Shown here: positions 9,257 to 34,649 of the stretch, piece after piece
How positions within the stretch are numbered: position 1 is the first letter of the stretch
Layout of the letters: every line of letters starts with the position of its first letter
Notes under the pieces: model-generated
What the model was told of the DNA's origin: nothing
Databases searched by the model: none
Seen by the model: only the letters and a program-made list of their open reading frames with translations
Assembly: GCA_002796305.1 (NCBI GenBank)
Contig: PCWZ01000049.1
Coordinates: forward strand, 1 to 57,118
Direction: 5' to 3'
Source: Deltaproteobacteria bacterium CG11_big_fil_rev_8_21_14_0_20_49_13
Lineage (GTDB): Bacteria; UBA10199; GCA-002796325; 1-14-0-20-49-13
DNA: 57,118 bases
Program-made: the position numbers and the translations under genes

Positions 9257-10639
9257 ATGCGCCTTCCGCACAAGTTCGGCAAATATATCCTAGAGCTAAA
9301 GATAGCTCAGGGAGGGATGGCGGAGATCTACAAAGCAAAGTATGTGGGCGAGGGAGGATTCGAAAAAACGGTTGCCGTTAAACGGATCCTTCCCGTCTGG
9401 TCGGACAGCAAAGATTTTATAACGATGCTTTGCGATGAGGCCAAGGCGTTGGTACAGCTTCAGCATCAAAATATCGTTCAGGTGTATGAGCTGGGCAGAG
9501 ATAAAGACGTATTCTACATATCTATGGAATATGTGGATGGCGTGGATGTTAGAAGGCTGTTCAAAGCGGTTCAAGATAGTTCAAAGGTTACCGAATGGCC
9601 GCTCAAACTCACCTGTTTTATCGTTTCAGAGGTATTGAAGGCCCTCGATTTTTCGCATAATAAAAATTCAGGGATAGTTCACCGTGATATCAGCCCTCAG
9701 AACATCCTTGTTTCATTCAGCGGAGAGGTAAAGGTCGCCGATTTTGGCATTGCCAAGGGCTTTCACAGATCATTTGAAACCACCGCGCAACAGGTGAAAG
9801 GAAAATATGCCTACATGTCCCCCGAACAGGCAGGAGGAAAAGCGGTTGATGCGCGTACCGATATTTATTCTGTAGGCGTTATATTTTATGAGCTTCTGAC
9901 CGGCCAAAGGCTTTATGACGCGCCCAACGACCTCATGACGATCGAAGAGGTAAAACGATCGTCACTGCCAAACGGTTGGGGCAGAGAGATGGACACCGAA
10001 CTTAGAGAAATTATTATAAAGTCGCTAAAAAAAGATGTTTCGGAAAGATATCAGACGGCCAGAGAATTTTTAGATGACATAAATAGATATATTGTGTCTC
10101 ACGGTCTTGTCACCAATAGCATCGAGCTCTCCGGCGTGCTTCGCGGGTATTTTAAAGAGAATATTAAGCAGGCGCCATCTTTAGCAGACGACAAAAGAAA
10201 TGAGACCAAGGCCTTGAGCGTTGTCTCAAGAACCCCTCCCGAAAAGAAGGCGCTTGGCCTAAGATATGTGTATTCTATCTTGTTCATCATCCTTTCGGGA
10301 CTCTTTTTTAGTTTCAGCCCCCATTCAATTCGTTACACACCAGAACCGGTCCGAACGACCCCTACGATAGAGGAGAAGAAGGCGATCCCGTCTTCCATGC
10401 CAGCGACCCTAAGCGTTCAGGCGCGACCGTGGGGATATGTTTACATCCCGGGGCTCGTTGAGAGGAGAGAGACGCCCGTTCGTTCGGTAAAGGTGAGGCC
10501 GGGCGATTATACGCTCAAGGTAAATTTTGAACCAGAGAACAAGTGGGTGGAGAAGAAGATAATATTGTCTGGCGGCGAAAAGACGGCGTGTATGGCGGAC
10601 TTTACCAAAGGCACAACGCTTACCTGCATATCTAAATGA
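9257..10639 (+). CDS. Transmembrane Ser/Thr protein kinase with PEGA-like extracytoplasmic C-terminal domain
   Basis: Gly-loop AQGGMAEIY, VAVK, HRDISPQNIL, DFGIAK and YMSPEQ. TM segment YVYSILFIILSGLFFSF. C-terminal ATLSVQARPWGYVYIPG...VRPGDYTLKV. Confidence 0.85.
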   Translation: MRLPHKFGKYILELKIAQGGMAEIYKAKYVGEGGFEKTVAVKRILPVWSDSKDFITMLCDEAKALVQLQHQNIVQVYELGRDKDVFYISMEYVDGVDVRRLFKAVQDSSKVTEWPLKLTCFIVSEVLKALDFSHNKNSGIVHRDISPQNILVSFSGEVKVADFGIAKGFHRSFETTAQQVKGKYAYMSPEQAGGKAVDARTDIYSVGVIFYELLTGQRLYDAPNDLMTIEEVKRSSLPNGWGREMDTELREIIIKSLKKDVSERYQTAREFLDDINRYIVSHGLVTNSIELSGVLRGYFKENIKQAPSLADDKRNETKALSVVSRTPPEKKALGLRYVYSILFIILSGLFFSFSPHSIRYTPEPVRTTPTIEEKKAIPSSMPATLSVQARPWGYVYIPGLVERRETPVRSVKVRPGDYTLKVNFEPENKWVEKKIILSGGEKTACMADFTKGTTLTCISK

Positions 10640-19269: not shown

Positions 19270-19563
19270 CCGAGTTAACCGATAAGATTTTTTATCTTTT
19301 CCAGCAATTCTTCCGGATCGGCAGAGAGATAGAACTGGCTATTGCAAAGGCCGCGCCAATCGCAATTTTCAGCGTGCCTGCTCTTGCGGAGTTTATTTAA
19401 TGGACGGCGGGCTGATGTAGGCAGGAATGCGGGGAGAGACACAAAACAAGAGTTTGAAGTCGCGCTCCGGGTATTTCCTCGCGCACCCACGAAACGTGAG
19501 TACCCGCGGTCGGTCGGAACAGCGGCTCCTTCGGAACCGAGTTCTCGTCCAGAGAACCTAAAA

Positions 19564-19606
19564 AGTCGAAAGGCCAGCTGTTTACACAGCCGGCCTTTCG
19601 ACTTTG
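19564..19606 (-). terminator. Intrinsic terminator downstream of the tRNA
   Basis: Minus strand reads AAAGTCGAAAGGCC-loop-GGCCTTTCGACTTTT (12-bp stem plus T-run). Confidence 0.65.
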
Positions 19607-19678
19607 TGGGCCTCGAGGGACTCGAACCCCCAGCCAACCGGTTATGAGCCGGTAGCTCTACCATTGAGCTAGAGGCCC
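19607..19678 (-). tRNA. tRNA with CAU anticodon (elongator Met, or Ile2/lysidine type)
   Basis: Manual cloverleaf: GGGCCTC/TA/GCTC-AATGGTA-GAGC/T/ACCGG-CTCATAA-CCGGT/TGGCT/GGGGG-TTCGAGT-CCCTC/GAGGCCC-A. G1-C72 is paired, so it is not an initiator. CCA is not encoded. Confidence 0.85.
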
Positions 19679-19911
19679 TATTTAAGATGGGGGGAACGAC
19701 CGGCTCGAAGACTCGCCGTTTCCCCCCAAGCCACTCGGCTCACCGCTGGCAAAGCCGGGCGGTTCGCCGCTTAACTATAATTTCAAACATTTATATTCAA
19801 AATTCTGCCCGCCAAAGCTCTAGTGGCGGGCGCTTCCTTAGAGGAAACCCATATATTATATGATGTCCTGTAGTCAACGTAAAATTAAACCGTTTAAAAA
19901 GTTTAAAAAGA

Positions 19912-19939
19912 TTGACAAATCCAAACCTTCAAGTAAATT
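19912..19939 (+). promoter_or_regulatory. sigma-70 promoter candidate (TTGACA-16 nt-TAAATT) for the peptide/rSAM cassette
   Basis: Perfect -35 box. The -10 box has T1, A2 and T6. It lies about 27 nt upstream of the ATG at 19966, with SD GGGAGGA in between. Confidence 0.55.
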
Positions 19940-19965
19940 AACGCCTCAACAAATCGGGAGGAAAA

Positions 19966-20118
19966 ATGGATAGAAAGAAAAAAGAAGATCTGTGCAAATG
20001 CGGTTGCGACCCCAAAGTAACGACCAAAAAGGACAAAAAGAACCAGAAATGGGTGAAGCCGGAGCTTACAGACGTGTCCGGACGTGTAATGGCACAGCCT
20101 TATATCAGATTTACCTAG
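19966..20118 (+). CDS. 50-aa precursor-like peptide with a PqqA-like C-terminal 22 residues
   Basis: Below the ORF-track size cutoff. Own translation: MDRKKKEDLCKCGCDPKVTTKKDKKNQKWVKPELTDVSGRVMAQPYIRFT. Strong SD GGGAGGA 4 nt upstream. Located directly upstream of the PqqD-like and radical SAM genes. Confidence 0.7.
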   Translation: MDRKKKEDLCKCGCDPKVTTKKDKKNQKWVKPELTDVSGRVMAQPYIRFT

Positions 20119-20153
20119 ATCTTAAACGCGGTGTGATGGATATCGTAACGTTT

Positions 20154-20196
20154 CAAGGGGGCGACGTTTATGACGATGCCCCTTTGTTTTATTTTA
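20154..20196 (+). terminator. Terminator/attenuator-like hairpin between the peptide gene and the pqqD-like gene
   Basis: CAAGGGGGC-15 nt loop-GCCCCTTTG (9 bp including one G-U pair), followed by TTTTATTTTA. Confidence 0.45.
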
Positions 20197-20245
20197 AAGC
20201 CCGCCTTCGCCATTAAAATGGCTACGGCGAGGCAAGGAGAAATCT

Positions 20246-20567: not shown

Positions 20568-21548
20568 ATGGAACCCACAAAGAACTTTAACACAACGCCC
20601 GGCATGGCCGGAGAGAATTTTGACGATTTCAAGGCGCCGCTGTTTCTTGCGTGGCAGATAAATTCCGTCTGCAACCTTGGATGCCTCCACTGTTGCGAAG
20701 AGGCCGGCCACCACATTCCGGGAGAGATGACAAGGGATCAAATTTTCACTTTCCTGCATCAGGTCCGCGAGATGGGGATCCCTTACGTTGCCATATCCGG
20801 CGGCGAGCCGCTTCTGCATCCCAACTTCTTCGAAGTGGCAGAGTTCATCCGCGAAGCCGGAATGAGCCTAAAGGTCGAGACCAACGGAGAGTTCATCGAC
20901 GACAAGGTCGTTGATCGTTTTGCCGCGCTCGATTTTAGGTCGGTCCAAATAAGCCTCGATGGCGCGACCGCCGCCACCCATGAGGTCCTGCGTTTAAAGG
21001 GTGACTGGAAAAAATCTTATACCGCCGTAAAAAAACTGGTGGAAAAGGGCGTGACAACGGAGATAGTATTCGTGCCGACAAGTTTTAATATCCATGAAGT
21101 GGGCGAGGCGATAGACATGGCCCATGACCTTGGCTGCTACGGATTTTATACAGGCAAGATAATGCGCATCGGGCGTGCCGCGCTTAACTGGGATAAGTTG
21201 AATCCTACCGAAGAACAATACAAGGCCTTCTTTAAGACCCTCGACGAAAAAACAAAACAATACGAGAACAAGATGAAGGTCTATTACTATCCGTACGATG
21301 TCATCGAAGAGCTCAAATATAGATTGGAAAAGCCATCGGCGAGCCTCTTGGTCGTTCCTAACGGCAATACTAAATTAATAGGGCCGCTTCCCTTTATCTG
21401 CGGCAATGTTAAGGAACAATCGCTTGCGGAAGTTTGGGAACGTTACAAAAAGGCGTGGCGCGAACCCAAGGTCATCGAATTCACAAAGAGGGTCATAAAG
21501 GATCCCAACCTCCTCGCCCAATCAAATAAATGGCAAAACGTATTTTAA
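20568..21548 (+). CDS. Radical SAM enzyme, PqqE/MftC-like peptide-modifying type, with a Cys-poor (truncated SPASM-like) C-terminus
   Basis: CNLGCLHC (CX3CX2C), ISGGEPLL, and a C-terminal PFICGNVKEQSLAEVW resembling the start of a SPASM/Twitch domain. No CX2CX5CX3C motif. Confidence 0.8.
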   Translation: MEPTKNFNTTPGMAGENFDDFKAPLFLAWQINSVCNLGCLHCCEEAGHHIPGEMTRDQIFTFLHQVREMGIPYVAISGGEPLLHPNFFEVAEFIREAGMSLKVETNGEFIDDKVVDRFAALDFRSVQISLDGATAATHEVLRLKGDWKKSYTAVKKLVEKGVTTEIVFVPTSFNIHEVGEAIDMAHDLGCYGFYTGKIMRIGRAALNWDKLNPTEEQYKAFFKTLDEKTKQYENKMKVYYYPYDVIEELKYRLEKPSASLLVVPNGNTKLIGPLPFICGNVKEQSLAEVWERYKKAWREPKVIEFTKRVIKDPNLLAQSNKWQNVF

Positions 21549-22393
21549 GGTTCGTCCGTTACCGTTTTCTGCTATTTGCAGGCCTTCTGCCATATTGCCT
21601 TGGCGCCGTCATTTCGAGGCATAGCGTTCAAGCGTTCGACCTTAAACTCTTTCTTATAGGCCTTGTCGGCATATTTTTTACGCTCGTCGGAGTAGAGGCC
21701 TTCAACGAGTATTTCGACTGGGTGCTGGGGACCGACAGGGTCTTTCAGTTGAACCCAAAGCCTGTCACAAAAAAAAAGTTCTATATAGGTGTTGGGGCCT
21801 TCTTTATAGCCCTTTTGTTCGCGGTATATCTTACATGGCAGGTTGGGGCCGGCATTGCCATTTTTGCCTTGGTCGGTTTTATTGCGGCGGCCGGTTATCT
21901 TGGTCCGCCACTACGGTTCACGTACCGAGGACTTGGCGAGATCGTCATCGCCATTTCGTATGGCCCCGCCATGGTGCTTGGTAGCTACTACCTGCAGACC
22001 GGCCGGATAGATCTGCTTCCGGTCGTTGCATCAGCGTTACCGGCCATCTTTTTATTCTTAATAGCGATAATGAACGAGGTGCCCGATTTTCTGCAGGATA
22101 GCCTTGTCGGCAAGAGGAATATATGCGTAAGGAGCGGCAGGGAAGGGACGGTAACCATATACGGCTTGATGTCGGTCGTTCTCTACATAACTTTGACGCT
22201 GATGGTAATTATTGATCTGTTGCCAAAGATCTCCCTTCTTATCTTGCTAACCATCCCTTTTATGTGGCGCAACTATTACACCGCCAGAACTATGCTGGAG
22301 GAGCCTCCGAATCTGTTCGGTGCTATACGCGGGACCCTGATAGTTTACATCGTTTCCATGGGCGTTCTTATTGTCTCTTACTTGCAAAATTAA
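21530..22393 (+). CDS. UbiA-superfamily (MenA-like) aromatic prenyltransferase, polytopic membrane protein
   Basis: NEYFDWVLGTD (compare MenA NDYFDxxxGxD) and NEVPDFLQDSLVGKRN (compare NNxRDxxxDxxxGKxT). About 8-9 hydrophobic helices. 19-nt overlap with the radical SAM gene. Confidence 0.8.
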   Translation: MAKRILRFVRYRFLLFAGLLPYCLGAVISRHSVQAFDLKLFLIGLVGIFFTLVGVEAFNEYFDWVLGTDRVFQLNPKPVTKKKFYIGVGAFFIALLFAVYLTWQVGAGIAIFALVGFIAAAGYLGPPLRFTYRGLGEIVIAISYGPAMVLGSYYLQTGRIDLLPVVASALPAIFLFLIAIMNEVPDFLQDSLVGKRNICVRSGREGTVTIYGLMSVVLYITLTLMVIIDLLPKISLLILLTIPFMWRNYYTARTMLEEPPNLFGAIRGTLIVYIVSMGVLIVSYLQN

Positions 22394-22446: not shown

Positions 22447-23181
22447 GTGACAGCCGATCTGAAAGGTCAATTAGCGTTACTCAAGACACTGCAGGACGTC
22501 GATGTCGTCCTCCACGATATAAACCGCCAGTTGGAAGCAATACCCCTTAAAATAGACGAAGTCGCCTCCGTTTTTCGTGCCGCCCAGGAAGAAATAATCA
22601 AAAAAGAGGCCTTAAAAGCCGAGATCGAGAAAAAGAAGAGAGTTGAGGAGCTTGAGATAGAGGCCCAGAATGCCCGCACCAAAGAACGCGAGTCAAAGCT
22701 CCATGCTATTAAAACTAATAAGGAATATCAGGCCGCCATCAAAGAGATAGCCGACGCCAAGCAGACCACAAAGGATCGTGAAGAGGCCATTTTTACTATG
22801 ATGGAGTCGATAGAGAAGATTTCTGAAGAAATCACGCAACTTTCTTTGGGAATAGCCGATAAAGAGAATGTCTTTAGGAAAAAGGAGACTGGGCTCAAGC
22901 AGGAAGAGGAGCTCTTAAAGCTCGAACGTGACGAAAAGCTGGCTTTGAGGGCCGAGGCCGAGAAGGGCGTGGATAAGAAGGTCCTTAGCGAATACCGCTT
23001 AATTCAGCATCGTTTTAGCGATGGGATGGCGCTGGCAATAAACGGTGTCTGCGGCGGGTGCAATAAAAGGATACCCCCTCAGGTCTTTATCGAGCTAATG
23101 AAGTGGAAAGAGCTCATCAGTTGCCCAAACTGCCGCAGGCTCCTTTTCTTTGAAGAAGCGCCCACGCAAGAAGAAGCTTAA
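22447..23181 (+). CDS. Coiled-coil C4 zinc-ribbon protein (COG1579 family)
   Basis: Long heptad-rich coiled coil, then CGGCNKRIPPQ...CPNCRRLL. GTG start. Confidence 0.75.
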   Translation: MTADLKGQLALLKTLQDVDVVLHDINRQLEAIPLKIDEVASVFRAAQEEIIKKEALKAEIEKKKRVEELEIEAQNARTKERESKLHAIKTNKEYQAAIKEIADAKQTTKDREEAIFTMMESIEKISEEITQLSLGIADKENVFRKKETGLKQEEELLKLERDEKLALRAEAEKGVDKKVLSEYRLIQHRFSDGMALAINGVCGGCNKRIPPQVFIELMKWKELISCPNCRRLLFFEEAPTQEEA

Positions 23182-23228: not shown

Positions 23229-23570
23229 ATGATCAACATTAAAACAATGCCAAAGGATGCGGCCGCCGAGATCTTGCGTTATCTCGCCGAACATGAAGAC
23301 CTTCATTCGCTCGAAAAGGTTACGGGTGAAGAACTGACCTCGGTAGAGGTGAAGGCCCTCTTGAGGGAGATAGCCGACCAGCTTACAATTGAAGCCGCCG
23401 CCGAGACAAAAGGGGCCTTCAACGTCAGGGGAGACAAGACCCTTTCAAAGAACGCCAAGAACGTCATTTCATGCCTTTCGCCAAGGGAAGAGAAGCGCTT
23501 CCTTTCGGCATTCGGGCTTATCGACCCCTCGACTTGCCGGCCCGACGACCGGCGCGCTCGGGACAGGTAA
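23229..23570 (+). CDS. Hypothetical protein
   Basis: 113-aa ORF in the same orientation as its neighbours. I recognise no family. A short LSPREEKRFLSAFGL segment is reminiscent of sigma region 4. Confidence 0.45.
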   Translation: MINIKTMPKDAAAEILRYLAEHEDLHSLEKVTGEELTSVEVKALLREIADQLTIEAAAETKGAFNVRGDKTLSKNAKNVISCLSPREEKRFLSAFGLIDPSTCRPDDRRARDR

Positions 23571-23580
23571 GAAGTGACCC

Positions 23581-23982
23581 GTGAAAAAACTGATAATAAA
23601 TAGCGATGGTGCCGCACGCGGCAACCCCGGACCCGCCGGTATCGGTGTAACGATAAAGGACGAAAAAGGGGCCATTGTAAGAGAGATAGCCGAGTATCTG
23701 GGCGAAACGACGAACAATCAGGCGGAATATAGGGCGCTCATCGCAGGGTTAAAGGCGGCCGTAGAGATGGGCGCCGAAGAGATAAGGGCTTTTGCCGATT
23801 CGGAGCTTATCGTCAAACAGATAAAGGGCCTTTACAAGGTGAAGAACGAAGGACTTAGGCCCCTTTTTGAAGAGGTCAAGGGGCTCTTGCGAAAATTCAA
23901 GAGCTGTAATATAACCTATGTGCCTCGCGAGATGAACAAAGAGGCAGATAAGCTCGCCAACAAGGCGATAGACGAAGCTTAA
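23581..23982 (+). CDS. rnhA: Ribonuclease HI-family protein
   Basis: SDGAARGNPGPAGIG (Asp), NNQAEYRAL (Glu), ADSELIV (Asp) and NKEADKLAN (Asp). GTG start. Confidence 0.8.
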   Translation: MKKLIINSDGAARGNPGPAGIGVTIKDEKGAIVREIAEYLGETTNNQAEYRALIAGLKAAVEMGAEEIRAFADSELIVKQIKGLYKVKNEGLRPLFEEVKGLLRKFKSCNITYVPREMNKEADKLANKAIDEA

Positions 23983-24000: not shown

Positions 24001-24463
24001 ATGAACGGAGGGCCTTTTACGCGGTCGCCGTCCGCCTTTGGCGGATGGAGGAAAGTCCGGGCTTTAAAGAGCGCCGTAGCGGATAACGTCCGCCATCTCG
24101 ATGAAAATCGGGAGAGGAACAGTGCCACAGAGACGAGTCTTGTCCGGGGACACACACTTAATTCAAGAAGTGTGAATTAATTGTGTGTCCCCGGATGAGG
24201 GTGAAACGAGGTAAACTCTACGGAAAGCAAGGCCAAGCAGGGACACGGGTTGCTCGCCCGTCCGATCCGGCAACGGAGAGGACAATCCCGGGTAGGCCGC
24301 TACTATCTTTATCAGTAACCGCCTTTGCCGCAAGGCTTTGAGCGAGTCAAGCGCTAGCGTTGGTAAAGATGACGAGATGCGAGGCAACTTTGCACCCCAG
24401 ATGAATGATCGCACCCCGGAAGGGGATACAGAACCCGGCTTATTAAAGGCCTTCCGTTCATTT
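24001..24463 (+). ncRNA. rnpB: RNase P RNA, bacterial type A
   Basis: GGAGGAAAGTCCGGGC (P4 5' strand), CAGTGCCACAGAGAC, GGGTGAAACGAGGTAA, and ACAGAACCCGGCTTA (P4 3' strand). P1 pairs ATGAACGGAGGGCCTTT with AAAGGCCTTCCGTTCAT. T-run after the 3' end. Confidence 0.9.
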
Positions 24464-33770: not shown

Positions 33771-34649
33771 ATGGATCTCAAAAAATATCTGTCAGAAAAG
33801 AAGACGTTGGTTGACAAGGCCATTGAAGAGTATTTTTCAAAAGAGTGCGGCGCCTCGCCAAAATTGAAAGAGGCGATGCTTTATAGCCTTCGCGCCGGCG
33901 GAAAGAGGCTACGTCCCGTACTTGTGATGGCCGCATGCGAGGCGTGCGGCGGCAAGGCCGCCGATTCAACGCCGGCGGCTCTGGCCCTTGAGATGATACA
34001 CACCTTCTCACTTGTTCACGACGACCTGCCTGCAATGGACGACGATGATCTAAGGCGCGGTCAGCCGACCAGTCACAAGAAGTTCGGCGGGGCAACGGCC
34101 ATCTTGGCGGGCGATGCGCTCCTTGCGGAGGCGTTTTCGTGCCTTTCGTCGTGCGTCGTGCGTTGTGCGTCATGCGTCCAGATCATAAATGATATCGCTA
34201 ATGCGACAGGTGCCCGGGGTATGACAGGAGGTCAGGAGCTGGACCTCGAGGCCGAAGGAAAGAAGGTCTCTTACGAAGAACTTAAGAACATCCATAAACT
34301 AAAGACCGGAGCATTGATCGAAGTTTCTATTACAAGCGGCGCTAAAGTAGCCGGCGCCAAAGACGATAAACTTTCAACTCTTAAGAAATATGGAGAGGCG
34401 ATAGGACTTGCCTTTCAGATAACCGACGACATCCTTGATGTAGAAGGGACGACGGAACAGCTGGGAAAGCCCGCAAAGAGCGATATAGAGAACGAAAAAG
34501 CTACCTATCCCGCGATATTAGGAATAGAAAAATCCAAAAAACTTGCTAAAGATCTTGTGGATAAGGCCTACTCTGCCCTCGCCGGATTTGATTCAAGGGC
34601 CGATCCTTTGCGCGATATTGCCCGCTACATACTTACCCGTAAGAGTTGA
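33771..34649 (+). CDS. ispA: Farnesyl-diphosphate synthase (polyprenyl synthetase family)
   Basis: First DDLPAMDDDDLRRG and second FQITDDILD Asp-rich motifs. xseB-ispA synteny. Confidence 0.9.
   Translation: MDLKKYLSEKKTLVDKAIEEYFSKECGASPKLKEAMLYSLRAGGKRLRPVLVMAACEACGGKAADSTPAALALEMIHTFSLVHDDLPAMDDDDLRRGQPTSHKKFGGATAILAGDALLAEAFSCLSSCVVRCASCVQIINDIANATGARGMTGGQELDLEAEGKKVSYEELKNIHKLKTGALIEVSITSGAKVAGAKDDKLSTLKKYGEAIGLAFQITDDILDVEGTTEQLGKPAKSDIENEKATYPAILGIEKSKKLAKDLVDKAYSALAGFDSRADPLRDIARYILTRKS

Follow-up and report, generated by a model that had tools for sequence, protein, structure and literature searches.

The stretch of DNA analysed here, called the window below, covers positions 1 to 57,118 of contig PCWZ01000049.1, from Deltaproteobacteria bacterium CG11_big_fil_rev_8_21_14_0_20_49_13 (assembly GCA_002796305.1). 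On its forward strand lies an ATG-initiated open reading frame (ORF) of 50 codons at 19966-20118, with the translation MDRKKKEDLCKCGCDPKVTTKKDKKNQKWVKPELTDVSGRVMAQPYIRFT*, and downstream of it are genes for a PqqD-family protein, a radical S-adenosylmethionine (SAM) enzyme and a membrane prenyltransferase of the UbiA superfamily (Table 1). The subject of this report is this four-gene cassette and the precursor peptide with which it begins. The short ORF was picked out in an earlier reading of the letters alone, hereafter the original prediction, as an unannotated peptide collinear with PqqA, the precursor of pyrroloquinoline quinone (PQQ). The translation given there was exact. The word unannotated holds for the gene track then at hand, but not for public gene calls, which contain an identical protein (P0001) and in which the relatives are deposited as 'hypothetical protein'.

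Table 1. Positions of the cassette genes, their signals and the surrounding features in the window.
Feature	Position	Strand	Basis and remarks
tRNA-Met (CAT)	19606-19678	-	upstream of peptide gene
Sigma-70-like promoter, TTGACA-16-TAAATT	19912..19939	+	consensus scan, 10/12 match; ~27 nt upstream of peptide ATG; consensus match only
Ribosome-binding site, GGGAGG	19956..19961	+	read from sequence; 4 nt before ATG
Precursor peptide gene, 50 aa + stop	19966..20118	+	translation, homologues, codon-position entropy
Variable N-terminal extension, residues 1-28, Lys-rich here, with CKCGC	19966..20049	+	unconserved in family alignment
Leader recognition motif W29-V-K-P-E-L-T-D-V-S38, probable PqqD-binding segment by analogy	20050..20079	+	alignment conservation
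Invariant core V41-M-A-Q-P-Y-I-R-F-T50, presumed substrate of radical SAM enzyme and prenyltransferase	20086..20115	+	
G+C-rich hairpin followed by UUUGUUUUAUUUU, terminator- or attenuator-like	20154..20195	+	between peptide gene and pqqD
PqqD-family peptide chaperone (RiPP recognition element), 83 aa	20246..20497	+	Pfam PF05402, E = 1.2e-11, above gathering score
Radical SAM enzyme, 326 aa, PqqE/SkfB/SuiB-like fold	20568..21548	+	Pfam PF04055
UbiA-superfamily membrane prenyltransferase, 287 aa, MenA/UBIAD1-like	21530..22393	+	Pfam PF01040, 72.6 bits vs 34.2
CdsZ-like Zn-ribbon gene	22447-23181		precedes RNase P RNA
113-aa ORF	23229-23570		precedes RNase P RNA
RNase HI-like gene	23581-23982		precedes RNase P RNA
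Bacterial RNase P RNA class A	24009-24457	+	153 bits
Polyprenyl synthetase gene	33771-34649	+	~0.9 kb downstream of exonuclease VII large-subunit gene, histidine kinase gene between

Relatives of the peptide are numerous. A word-indexed search returned 110 small homologues (44-73 residues, unnamed or 'hypothetical') in metagenome-assembled genomes (MAGs) of several phyla, an index-free hidden Markov model (HMM) search of 1.84 billion representatives gave 103 matches, about 95 of them small peptides, and a scan of GTDB with one genome per species found a relative encoded in 282 species genomes. Distinct relatives number about 180 overall, with 182 members used for the motif statistics; the hosts belong to Elusimicrobia, Omnitrophota, Planctomycetota, Lentisphaerae, Acidobacteriota, Betaproteobacteria and others. 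A tblastn search of a plasmid collection with the peptide gave no match, and Pfam and NCBIfam scans of the window peptide gave no hit at E <= 0.01, the entries DUF2973 and ArgoL2 at E > 0.01 being noise.

At all 85 loci first fetched, the peptide ends in W-x-x-P-x-h-E/T-D/E-V-S-x-x-[V/I]-M-A-Q-P-Y-I-R-F-T-stop. In the family alignment W29, P32, V37 and S38 are invariant and L34 and D36 at least 90% conserved, Met42 is kept in nearly all members, and 181 of the 182 distinct members span 22 residues from the Trp to the C-terminus. Rare core variants (IRFS, VTAQ and IVLRPYIRFT) and two frameshifted reads were seen only by the index-free search. For the last 22 codons, compared over 80 nucleotide sequences that all differ, the summed entropy at codon positions 1, 2 and 3 is 7.1, 6.9 and 28.9, respectively; Ala, Pro and Thr use all four codons and Arg all six, the residue remaining unchanged throughout. 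The window and its nearest relative, locus L007, differ only synonymously in these 22 codons, and their alignment collapses directly after the stop codon. Saturated third codon positions in an essentially invariant [V/I]MAQPYIRFT show that this frame is translated and strongly selected, and that the peptide gene is real. A lack of frame conservation in related genomes would have refuted the original prediction; the translated precursor instead shows a synonymous-only substitution pattern and has roughly 180 homologues.

The two large peptide searches had the core as their seed (the GTDB scan used the pattern VMAQPYIR), so that the invariance could have been circular. This was controlled by the index-free HMM search and by four look-ups with the radical SAM or the UbiA protein as starting point, which were thus blind to the peptide. 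In all four, an upstream gene of 41-46 residues ending in [V/I]MAQPYIRFT was found, the core being still invariant. That the core is invariant while the N-terminus varies argues for a cofactor-like rather than an antibiotic-like type of conservation; from its constancy across phyla, a cofactor would therefore be expected rather than an antibiotic or a pheromone.

The N-terminal extension has a median Lys plus Arg content of 28%, and 22 of the 182 members (12%) have at least two Cys in it. The Lys-rich extension with CKCGC described in the original prediction is present in the window peptide, but CKCGC is not a family feature and had been given too much weight; as a functional metal site it was ruled out because the motif is unconserved in the family. 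In different lineages, about 12% of the members have Cys-rich patches (CKCGC, CCCCKSG, CSC, CGCGC) in the extension, for example at 19990-20005 in the window and in the peptides of L018, L027 and P0027.

An ORF of 74 residues (19992-20216) overlaps the peptide gene in a different frame, as had been stated in the original prediction, and its translation would have spoken against the peptide. In 22 of 80 relatives this frame is broken by stops over the stretch of the last 22 codons, and beyond the peptide stop codon the DNA is unalignable among relatives. The alternative frame is thus unconserved, and the 74-residue ORF was ruled out as the true gene.

Scanned against the NCBIfam release of June 2026, all four cassette proteins stay below the cut-off of every model. 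The PqqD-family protein, present at nearly all loci, remains below every equivalog cut-off (32 vs 46 for the PqqD of PQQ synthesis, 18.6 vs 33 for MftB). For the radical SAM enzyme the best models are MftC (135 vs 265), AhbD, NirJ, sactipeptide maturases and PqqE (77 vs 381), all far below cut-off. At E <= 1e-30 its family has at least 1565 proteins, none with a name other than 'radical SAM protein'. Among 140 members only C35, C39 and C42 of the CX3CX2C motif are invariant cysteines; no conserved C-terminal Cys set is present in these members, and Pfam SPASM gave no hit in the window enzyme. The C-terminal region nevertheless has a SPASM- or twitch-like fold. The AlphaFold2 (AF2) model of the enzyme has a predicted local distance difference test (pLDDT) score of 87, and its top Foldseek matches are the RiPP maturases SkfB, SuiB and PqqE. 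Alignment to a real PqqE gives 27% identity over residues 24-290, with the SPASM cysteines of PqqE (positions 250-342) all lacking a counterpart in the cassette enzyme.

The ubiA gene, present at nearly all complete loci, overlaps the radical SAM gene by 19 nt. Its product matches MenA best among the NCBIfam models, at 93 bits against a cut-off of 277, and its relatives are named only 'prenyltransferase' or are auto-annotated as 1,4-dihydroxy-2-naphthoate (DHNA) octaprenyltransferase. The residues N59, E60, D63 and D69 together with N182, D186 and D190 are invariant, so both Asp-rich motifs are kept. The AF2 model (pLDDT 90.6) has UBIAD1 as its top Foldseek match, with a template modelling (TM) score of 0.73, and the fold also matches DGGGPS and UbiA homologues. 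Gene order, the PqqD protein, the modelled fold and the organisation of the peptide into leader and core all agree with the general class of radical SAM pathways for peptides made by the ribosome and modified after translation (RiPPs) that depend on a RiPP recognition element, to which the cassette would belong. That the adjacent radical SAM and PqqD-like proteins serve the peptide, as originally predicted, is made probable by a linkage that is constant across phyla and recurs in 4 of 4 peptide-blind look-ups.

The set of peptide, PqqD, radical SAM and UbiA genes is constant across phyla, with one to three PqqE-like radical SAM enzymes. The flanking genes vary between loci, and the unit is therefore the four genes. 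They occur in two architectures. In type A the order is peptide, pqqD, radical SAM, ubiA; this is the order in the window and in Elusimicrobia, Omnitrophota, Planctomycetota, Lentisphaerae, Acidobacteriota, Thermodesulfobacteriota and others. Type B has the order pqqD, radical SAM 1, ubiA, radical SAM 3, peptide, radical SAM 2, and is found in soil Betaproteobacteria and some Elusimicrobia (L009, L025, L033 and about 35 other loci). Its radical SAM paralogues are 36-45% identical, all with an intact CX3CX2C and none with SPASM cysteines; the L009 gene between ubiA and the peptide was recognised as the third paralogue by tblastn. The peptide core is identical in the single-enzyme type A and in type B cassettes. 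Individual loci deviate from these layouts. L075 has two radical SAM paralogues, at L063 (5300-6700) a cassette beside frdCAB looks degraded, with radical SAM fragments only and no ubiA hit, and at L092 a gene of the 23S_rRNA_IVP type (four-helix bundle, 9992-10363) separates the radical SAM gene of the cassette from ubiA.

Between the peptide gene and pqqD the window has a G+C-rich hairpin followed by a U-tract (Table 1); the fold of 20119-20245 has z = -3.7, the hairpin is conserved in L007, and hairpin plus U-tract occur in 36 of 83 loci versus 8 controls. In type B loci (e.g. L009 6169-6215) the element can be aligned to the opening ~15 codons of the radical SAM gene next after the peptide. 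Read in the frame of the 74-residue ORF, the region (20154-20216) gives ...GGDVYDDAPLFYF..., which resembles the D-x-Y-x-A-P-L-F N-terminus of the enzyme. The C-terminal part of that ORF (...GGDVYDDAPLF...) would thus be either a relic of a radical SAM N-terminus or a look-alike of one, and the alignment explains the spurious ORF. This suggests that type A lost the peptide-adjacent radical SAM gene and may have kept its 5' hairpin as a terminator or attenuator. In type B the beginning of the radical SAM gene itself contains the terminator-like hairpin.

Quinone-linked or prenyl-donor genes lie within 6 kb of the cassette in 41 of 85 loci. An IspB-like long-chain polyprenyl synthase gene is present in 15 of these 85, on the same strand and usually touching ubiA or pqqD, with heptaprenyl, solanesyl and octaprenyl synthases as its best models. 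Genes of the nqr type occur at 11 loci in three phyla (Planctomycetota, Omnitrophota and Lentisphaerae), and the NqrB and NqrC products pass their NCBIfam cut-offs. At L018, L040 and L027+L037 the cassette is placed inside such an operon, between nqrE and nqrF, in the order ispB-like, nqrA-E, peptide, pqqD, radical SAM, ubiA, nqrF. Genes frdAB are found at 17 loci; in Betaproteobacteria they stand directly upstream of pqqD and are preceded by a membrane anchor gene, and their products exceed the NCBIfam cut-offs for fumarate reductase (flavoprotein 1042 vs 663, Fe-S subunit 417 vs 264). A nuoL/M gene and a NapC/NirT-type cytochrome are near the cassette in two loci each.

Three further cases came from the peptide-blind look-ups. 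At L092 the cassette directly follows an Nqr/Rnf-like operon and is accompanied by an ispB-like gene and an NrfD-type molybdoenzyme, at L093 it comes directly after an Rnf-like operon that has a NuoEFG-like module, and L094 has a NarGHJ-like cluster. The Nqr/Rnf-like operons of L018, L040, L092 and L093 are of hybrid composition: the A subunit has RnfC_N, Complex1_51K and 4Fe-4S domains at L092 and 4Fe-4S plus NQRA domains at L040, and NqrF is present at L092, L040 and L018, its place being taken at L093, next to Rnf-like subunits, by the NuoE/F/G-like module. A Crp/FNR-type regulator is encoded at 6825-8003 of L029, a type B Betaproteobacterial locus, and subunits of 2-oxoacid:ferredoxin oxidoreductase near the cassette at L025, L057, L060, L065, L069 and L071. 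Both kinds of neighbour fit an anaerobic module.

In the window itself the cassette stands alone, with housekeeping genes on both flanks. The tRNA-Met gene upstream is on the opposite strand and ends at 19678, and the peptide gene therefore starts a new transcription unit; a purine-rich, GGAGG-like site such as the one before its ATG is also found at L004, L006 and L007. An Rfam scan around the peptide gene gave neither a riboswitch nor any known RNA except the upstream tRNA-Met and the downstream RNase P RNA. Overlapping the tRNA gene is a 129-residue ORF on the reverse strand (19275-19664) that is probably spurious, and a further G+C-rich hairpin (~19802-19832) lies between the tRNA gene and the peptide promoter. 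Downstream, the CdsZ-like Zn-ribbon gene, the 113-residue ORF and the RNase HI-like gene were rejected as cassette members because none of them recurs at other loci. The polyprenyl synthetase encoded 11 kb from the cassette does not match the cassette-linked IspB-like synthases at E <= 1e-10 and is probably the housekeeping IspA.

For comparison with PqqA we used the annotated pqqA beside pqqBCDE in Paraburkholderia, with which the PqqA sequence of the original prediction agrees in essentials. Aligned without gaps, 6-7 of 22 residues are identical (W, K, P, T, D and Y, in some cases also I), at p = 0.002 in a composition-matched shuffle. Window peptide and PqqA both have 22 residues from the Trp to the C-terminus with the Tyr at position 18, in agreement with what had been claimed. 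In the profile-profile comparison (hhalign) only the leader aligns, over 11 columns (kW~KPtLEDVS) with P = 2.6e-4 and a probability of 42%; the family is not recognised by the PqqA HMMs, the Pfam model (PF08042) matching 1 of 50 family members at E = 0.16 and the NCBIfam PqqA model giving nothing for the window peptide. The leader W-x-K-P-x-x-T-D said to be retained is so in the window peptide, but not throughout the family: the Lys is found in 72% of the 182 members, with Thr instead in Betaproteobacteria, and the T of T-D characterises the window clade, Glu being found elsewhere.

PqqE cross-links the Glu and the Tyr of the E-x-x-x-Y in PqqA (PMC10906245). This motif is absent from the new peptide, whose core M-A-Q-P-Y has Met where PqqA carries the cross-linked Glu; no family member has Glu at this position, so the canonical PQQ cross-link is ruled out, as originally argued. 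A tblastn search with Paraburkholderia PqqB and PqqC (E <= 1e-3) gave no hit for pqqB or pqqC in 88 loci and the window. The PqqA likeness is real at the level of the sequence and is confined to the leader, that is, to W-x-x-P-x-h-x-D, the length of 22 residues and the Tyr at position 18. The peptide is probably like PqqA in how it is presented to its enzyme and unlike PqqA in what is made from it. The overall idea of a PqqA-like precursor is thereby supported; the MenA-like prenyltransferase gene, the missing SPASM cysteines and the embedding in respiratory operons had been left out of it.

Taken together, we infer, for product and chemistry alike, that this RiPP-type four-gene cassette makes a prenylated, Tyr-derived redox molecule of the membrane, a reading to which we give slightly better than even chances. 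The peptide would be translated from its own ribosome-binding site and promoter-like site, and the hairpin with U-tract probably lets precursor message exceed enzyme message. By analogy with PqqA, PqqD and PqqE, the discrete PqqD protein would bind W-x-x-P-x-h-E/T-D-V-S and present VMAQPYIRFT to the radical SAM enzyme, the fixed spacing of 17 residues between Trp and Tyr serving as a ruler; binding of the PqqA leader by PqqD (PMC10906245) is the basis of this analogy. The enzyme, with one canonical [4Fe-4S] site and neither SPASM nor twitch clusters, would then abstract a hydrogen atom within M42-Y46 and modify the region of Tyr46 by a reaction other than the Glu-Tyr cross-link of PqqE, which is impossible here. 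As in the prenylation of 4-hydroxybenzoate or naphthoate, the MenA/UBIAD1-like enzyme may next add a long polyprenyl chain to the activated aromatic ring, a chain that the adjacent IspB-like synthase could supply in many genomes. From the neighbourhoods, the lipid-anchored, Tyr-derived product would act in the membrane as a quinone-like electron carrier or as a bound cofactor, with Nqr/Rnf-like complexes, Wolinella-type fumarate reductases and other quinone-dependent enzymes co-transcribed in other lineages as likely partners.

It is tempting to go one step further and to see here a third way of making a membrane isoprenoid electron carrier, one that starts from a ribosomal peptide and would lead to a new and probably low-potential lipoquinone-like cofactor, used in many uncultured anaerobic lineages by hybrid Nqr/Rnf-like complexes and Wolinella-type fumarate reductases; this we consider possible but doubtful. 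Fumarate reduction requires a low-potential quinone, which is missing in bacteria that have ubiquinone only, and the link of the Betaproteobacterial cassette to a Wolinella-type fumarate reductase is suggestive in this respect.

Several points weigh against a prenylated redox molecule. Every chemical step, and the product as well, has been inferred. About half of the loci, the window included, have no respiratory or prenyl-synthase neighbour, and some of the shared synteny may reflect common ancestry within Planctomycetota or Casimicrobiaceae rather than independent association. Among the loci surveyed, no protease, methyltransferase or hydroxylase recurs in the cassette, as the quinone, PQQ and mycofactocin pathways need; it is therefore not obvious how the cassette alone would arrive at a free quinone head group. 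Many hosts (Planctomycetota, Betaproteobacteria) can be expected to have a menaquinone or ubiquinone pathway of their own. When RiPP radical SAM enzymes form cross-links oxidatively, they normally do so with auxiliary clusters, and the cassette enzyme has none. The prenyl acceptor, finally, could be an unrelated small molecule.

The missing protease and ring-tailoring genes would also fit a prenylated lipopeptide with no redox role, in which the radical SAM enzyme modifies the peptide (e.g. by epimerisation or a cross-link) and UbiA prenylates Tyr46 solely as a membrane anchor, so that respiratory complexes would have in the product a small structural subunit, a factor for their assembly or a regulator. 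The lack of auxiliary clusters in the radical SAM enzyme, shared with enzymes of redox-neutral reactions, also agrees with this, as do the single Cys C278 conserved in three of the four radical SAM paralogue groups, the constant four-gene set and its insertion inside nqr-like operons. We nevertheless hold this to be rather unlikely, since a ten-residue core that is invariant across phyla while the partners differ (Nqr-like, Frd, Nar-like or none) is a better fit to a diffusible common cofactor, and the prenyltransferase is nearest to the quinone-forming MenA and UBIAD1.

The same likeness to MenA could instead mean that two functions share an operon. Peptide, PqqD and radical SAM enzyme would then yield a soluble cofactor of the PQQ or mycofactocin kind, for which MftC as the top NCBIfam model of the enzyme would speak, and UbiA would be an ordinary quinone prenyltransferase, analogous to MenA or MqnP and acting on a chorismate-derived ring, in line with its best matches to MenA models and UBIAD1 and with the DHNA octaprenyltransferase annotation of its relatives. 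Such a division is unlikely in our view: hardly any complete locus is without ubiA, the gene overlaps or directly adjoins the radical SAM gene, its product scores far below the MenA cut-off, and neither men, mqn or ubi genes nor tailoring genes of the PqqB/C or MftD/E type recur nearby.

A histidine kinase and a response regulator are encoded near the cassette in about 10-12 loci, downstream of it in some, and could be taken as the sensor of a secreted ComX-like prenylated signal or of an antimicrobial RiPP, in a ComQXPA-like arrangement to which the polyprenyl synthase gene adjoining the cassette in 15 loci would also fit. The pair is mostly limited to the synteny of one lineage, however, and exporter, immunity gene and leader protease are not recurrent at the loci. 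Pheromones and bacteriocins diversify, whereas the cassette core is invariant across phyla, and ComQ is of the polyprenyl-synthase type and not of the UbiA type. A signal or antimicrobial is thus very improbable. The idea that the peptide is a true PqqA, in a PQQ pathway that is genuine though diverged, is effectively refuted, for although leader motif, Trp-Tyr spacing and length match PqqA and PqqD-family and PqqE-like proteins are adjacent, the peptide has no E-x-x-x-Y and escapes the Pfam PqqA model, pqqB, pqqC and the SPASM cysteines are missing, and the PqqD and PqqE equivalog cut-offs are not reached.

No description of the cassette was found in the searchable full-text literature outside subscription-only papers, and we regard it as a widespread and undescribed system in which the logic of PQQ and mycofactocin (precursor, PqqD, radical SAM enzyme) is joined to a MenA-like step. 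To our knowledge, PQQ and mycofactocin are the only established pathways to peptide-derived redox cofactors, and both products are soluble. If a prenylated, Tyr-derived redox molecule is indeed made, it would represent a new class of membrane electron carrier and the first lipid-soluble member of the PQQ/mycofactocin class, and reconstructions of the respiratory chain would change for Elusimicrobia, Omnitrophota, Planctomycetota (including an anammox-family MAG), Lentisphaerae and soil Betaproteobacteria. Even on the most conservative reading, the cassette would be the first RiPP system with a UbiA-type prenyltransferase that we know of, and would hold new radical SAM chemistry on an invariant substrate. 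With a size of four genes it is directly testable by heterologous expression.

The cassette can be compared with known systems from the side of the prenyltransferase as well as from that of the peptide. With MenA, UBIAD1 and UbiA the cassette enzyme shares the fold and both Asp-rich motifs, and also frequent neighbours, namely a long-chain polyprenyl diphosphate synthase and respiratory enzymes that depend on quinones. It differs from them in that it stays below every MenA/UbiA equivalog cut-off, has N-E-x-x-D instead of N-D-x-x-D as its first motif, and is coupled to a peptide, PqqD and a radical SAM enzyme and not to men, mqn or ubi genes. Prenylated RiPPs, such as the cyanobactins with PagF-type enzymes and ComX with ComQ, likewise combine a ribosomal peptide with prenyl transfer, and Tyr is a plausible acceptor. 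Those systems use soluble enzymes of the ABBA fold or of a polyprenyl-synthase-like type, short prenyl donors and hypervariable cores, whereas the cassette has an integral-membrane UbiA enzyme and an invariant core.

PQQ synthesis resembles the cassette in its gene set, where a small precursor gene stands ahead of genes for a separate PqqD-family chaperone and a PqqE-like radical SAM enzyme, in the leader W-x-(K)-P-x-h-x-D, and in a core of cofactor-like invariance. The new peptide differs in its core, MAQPY as opposed to the E-x-x-x-Y of PqqA, and in its variable N-terminal extension of 20-30 residues; its cassette is without pqqB, pqqC and pqqF, has a radical SAM enzyme without the cysteines for SPASM auxiliary clusters, in some lineages as three paralogues, and has a UbiA prenyltransferase as obligatory fourth gene. 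In mycofactocin synthesis, too, a PqqD-like protein and a radical SAM enzyme act on a C-terminal core that contains a Tyr, and the result is a peptide-derived redox cofactor; MftC, as stated, is the top-scoring model for the cassette enzyme, but its match covers the core domain only and, as with MftB, falls short of the cut-off. Whereas MftA ends in GVY, the new peptide ends in IRFT, genes for MftD, MftE and MftF are absent from the cassette, and the tailoring proposed here is by prenylation instead of glycosylation. What sets the cassette apart from both PQQ and mycofactocin is a radical SAM enzyme without auxiliary clusters, an attached integral-membrane, MenA-like prenyltransferase, and its embedding in respiratory operons in several phyla.

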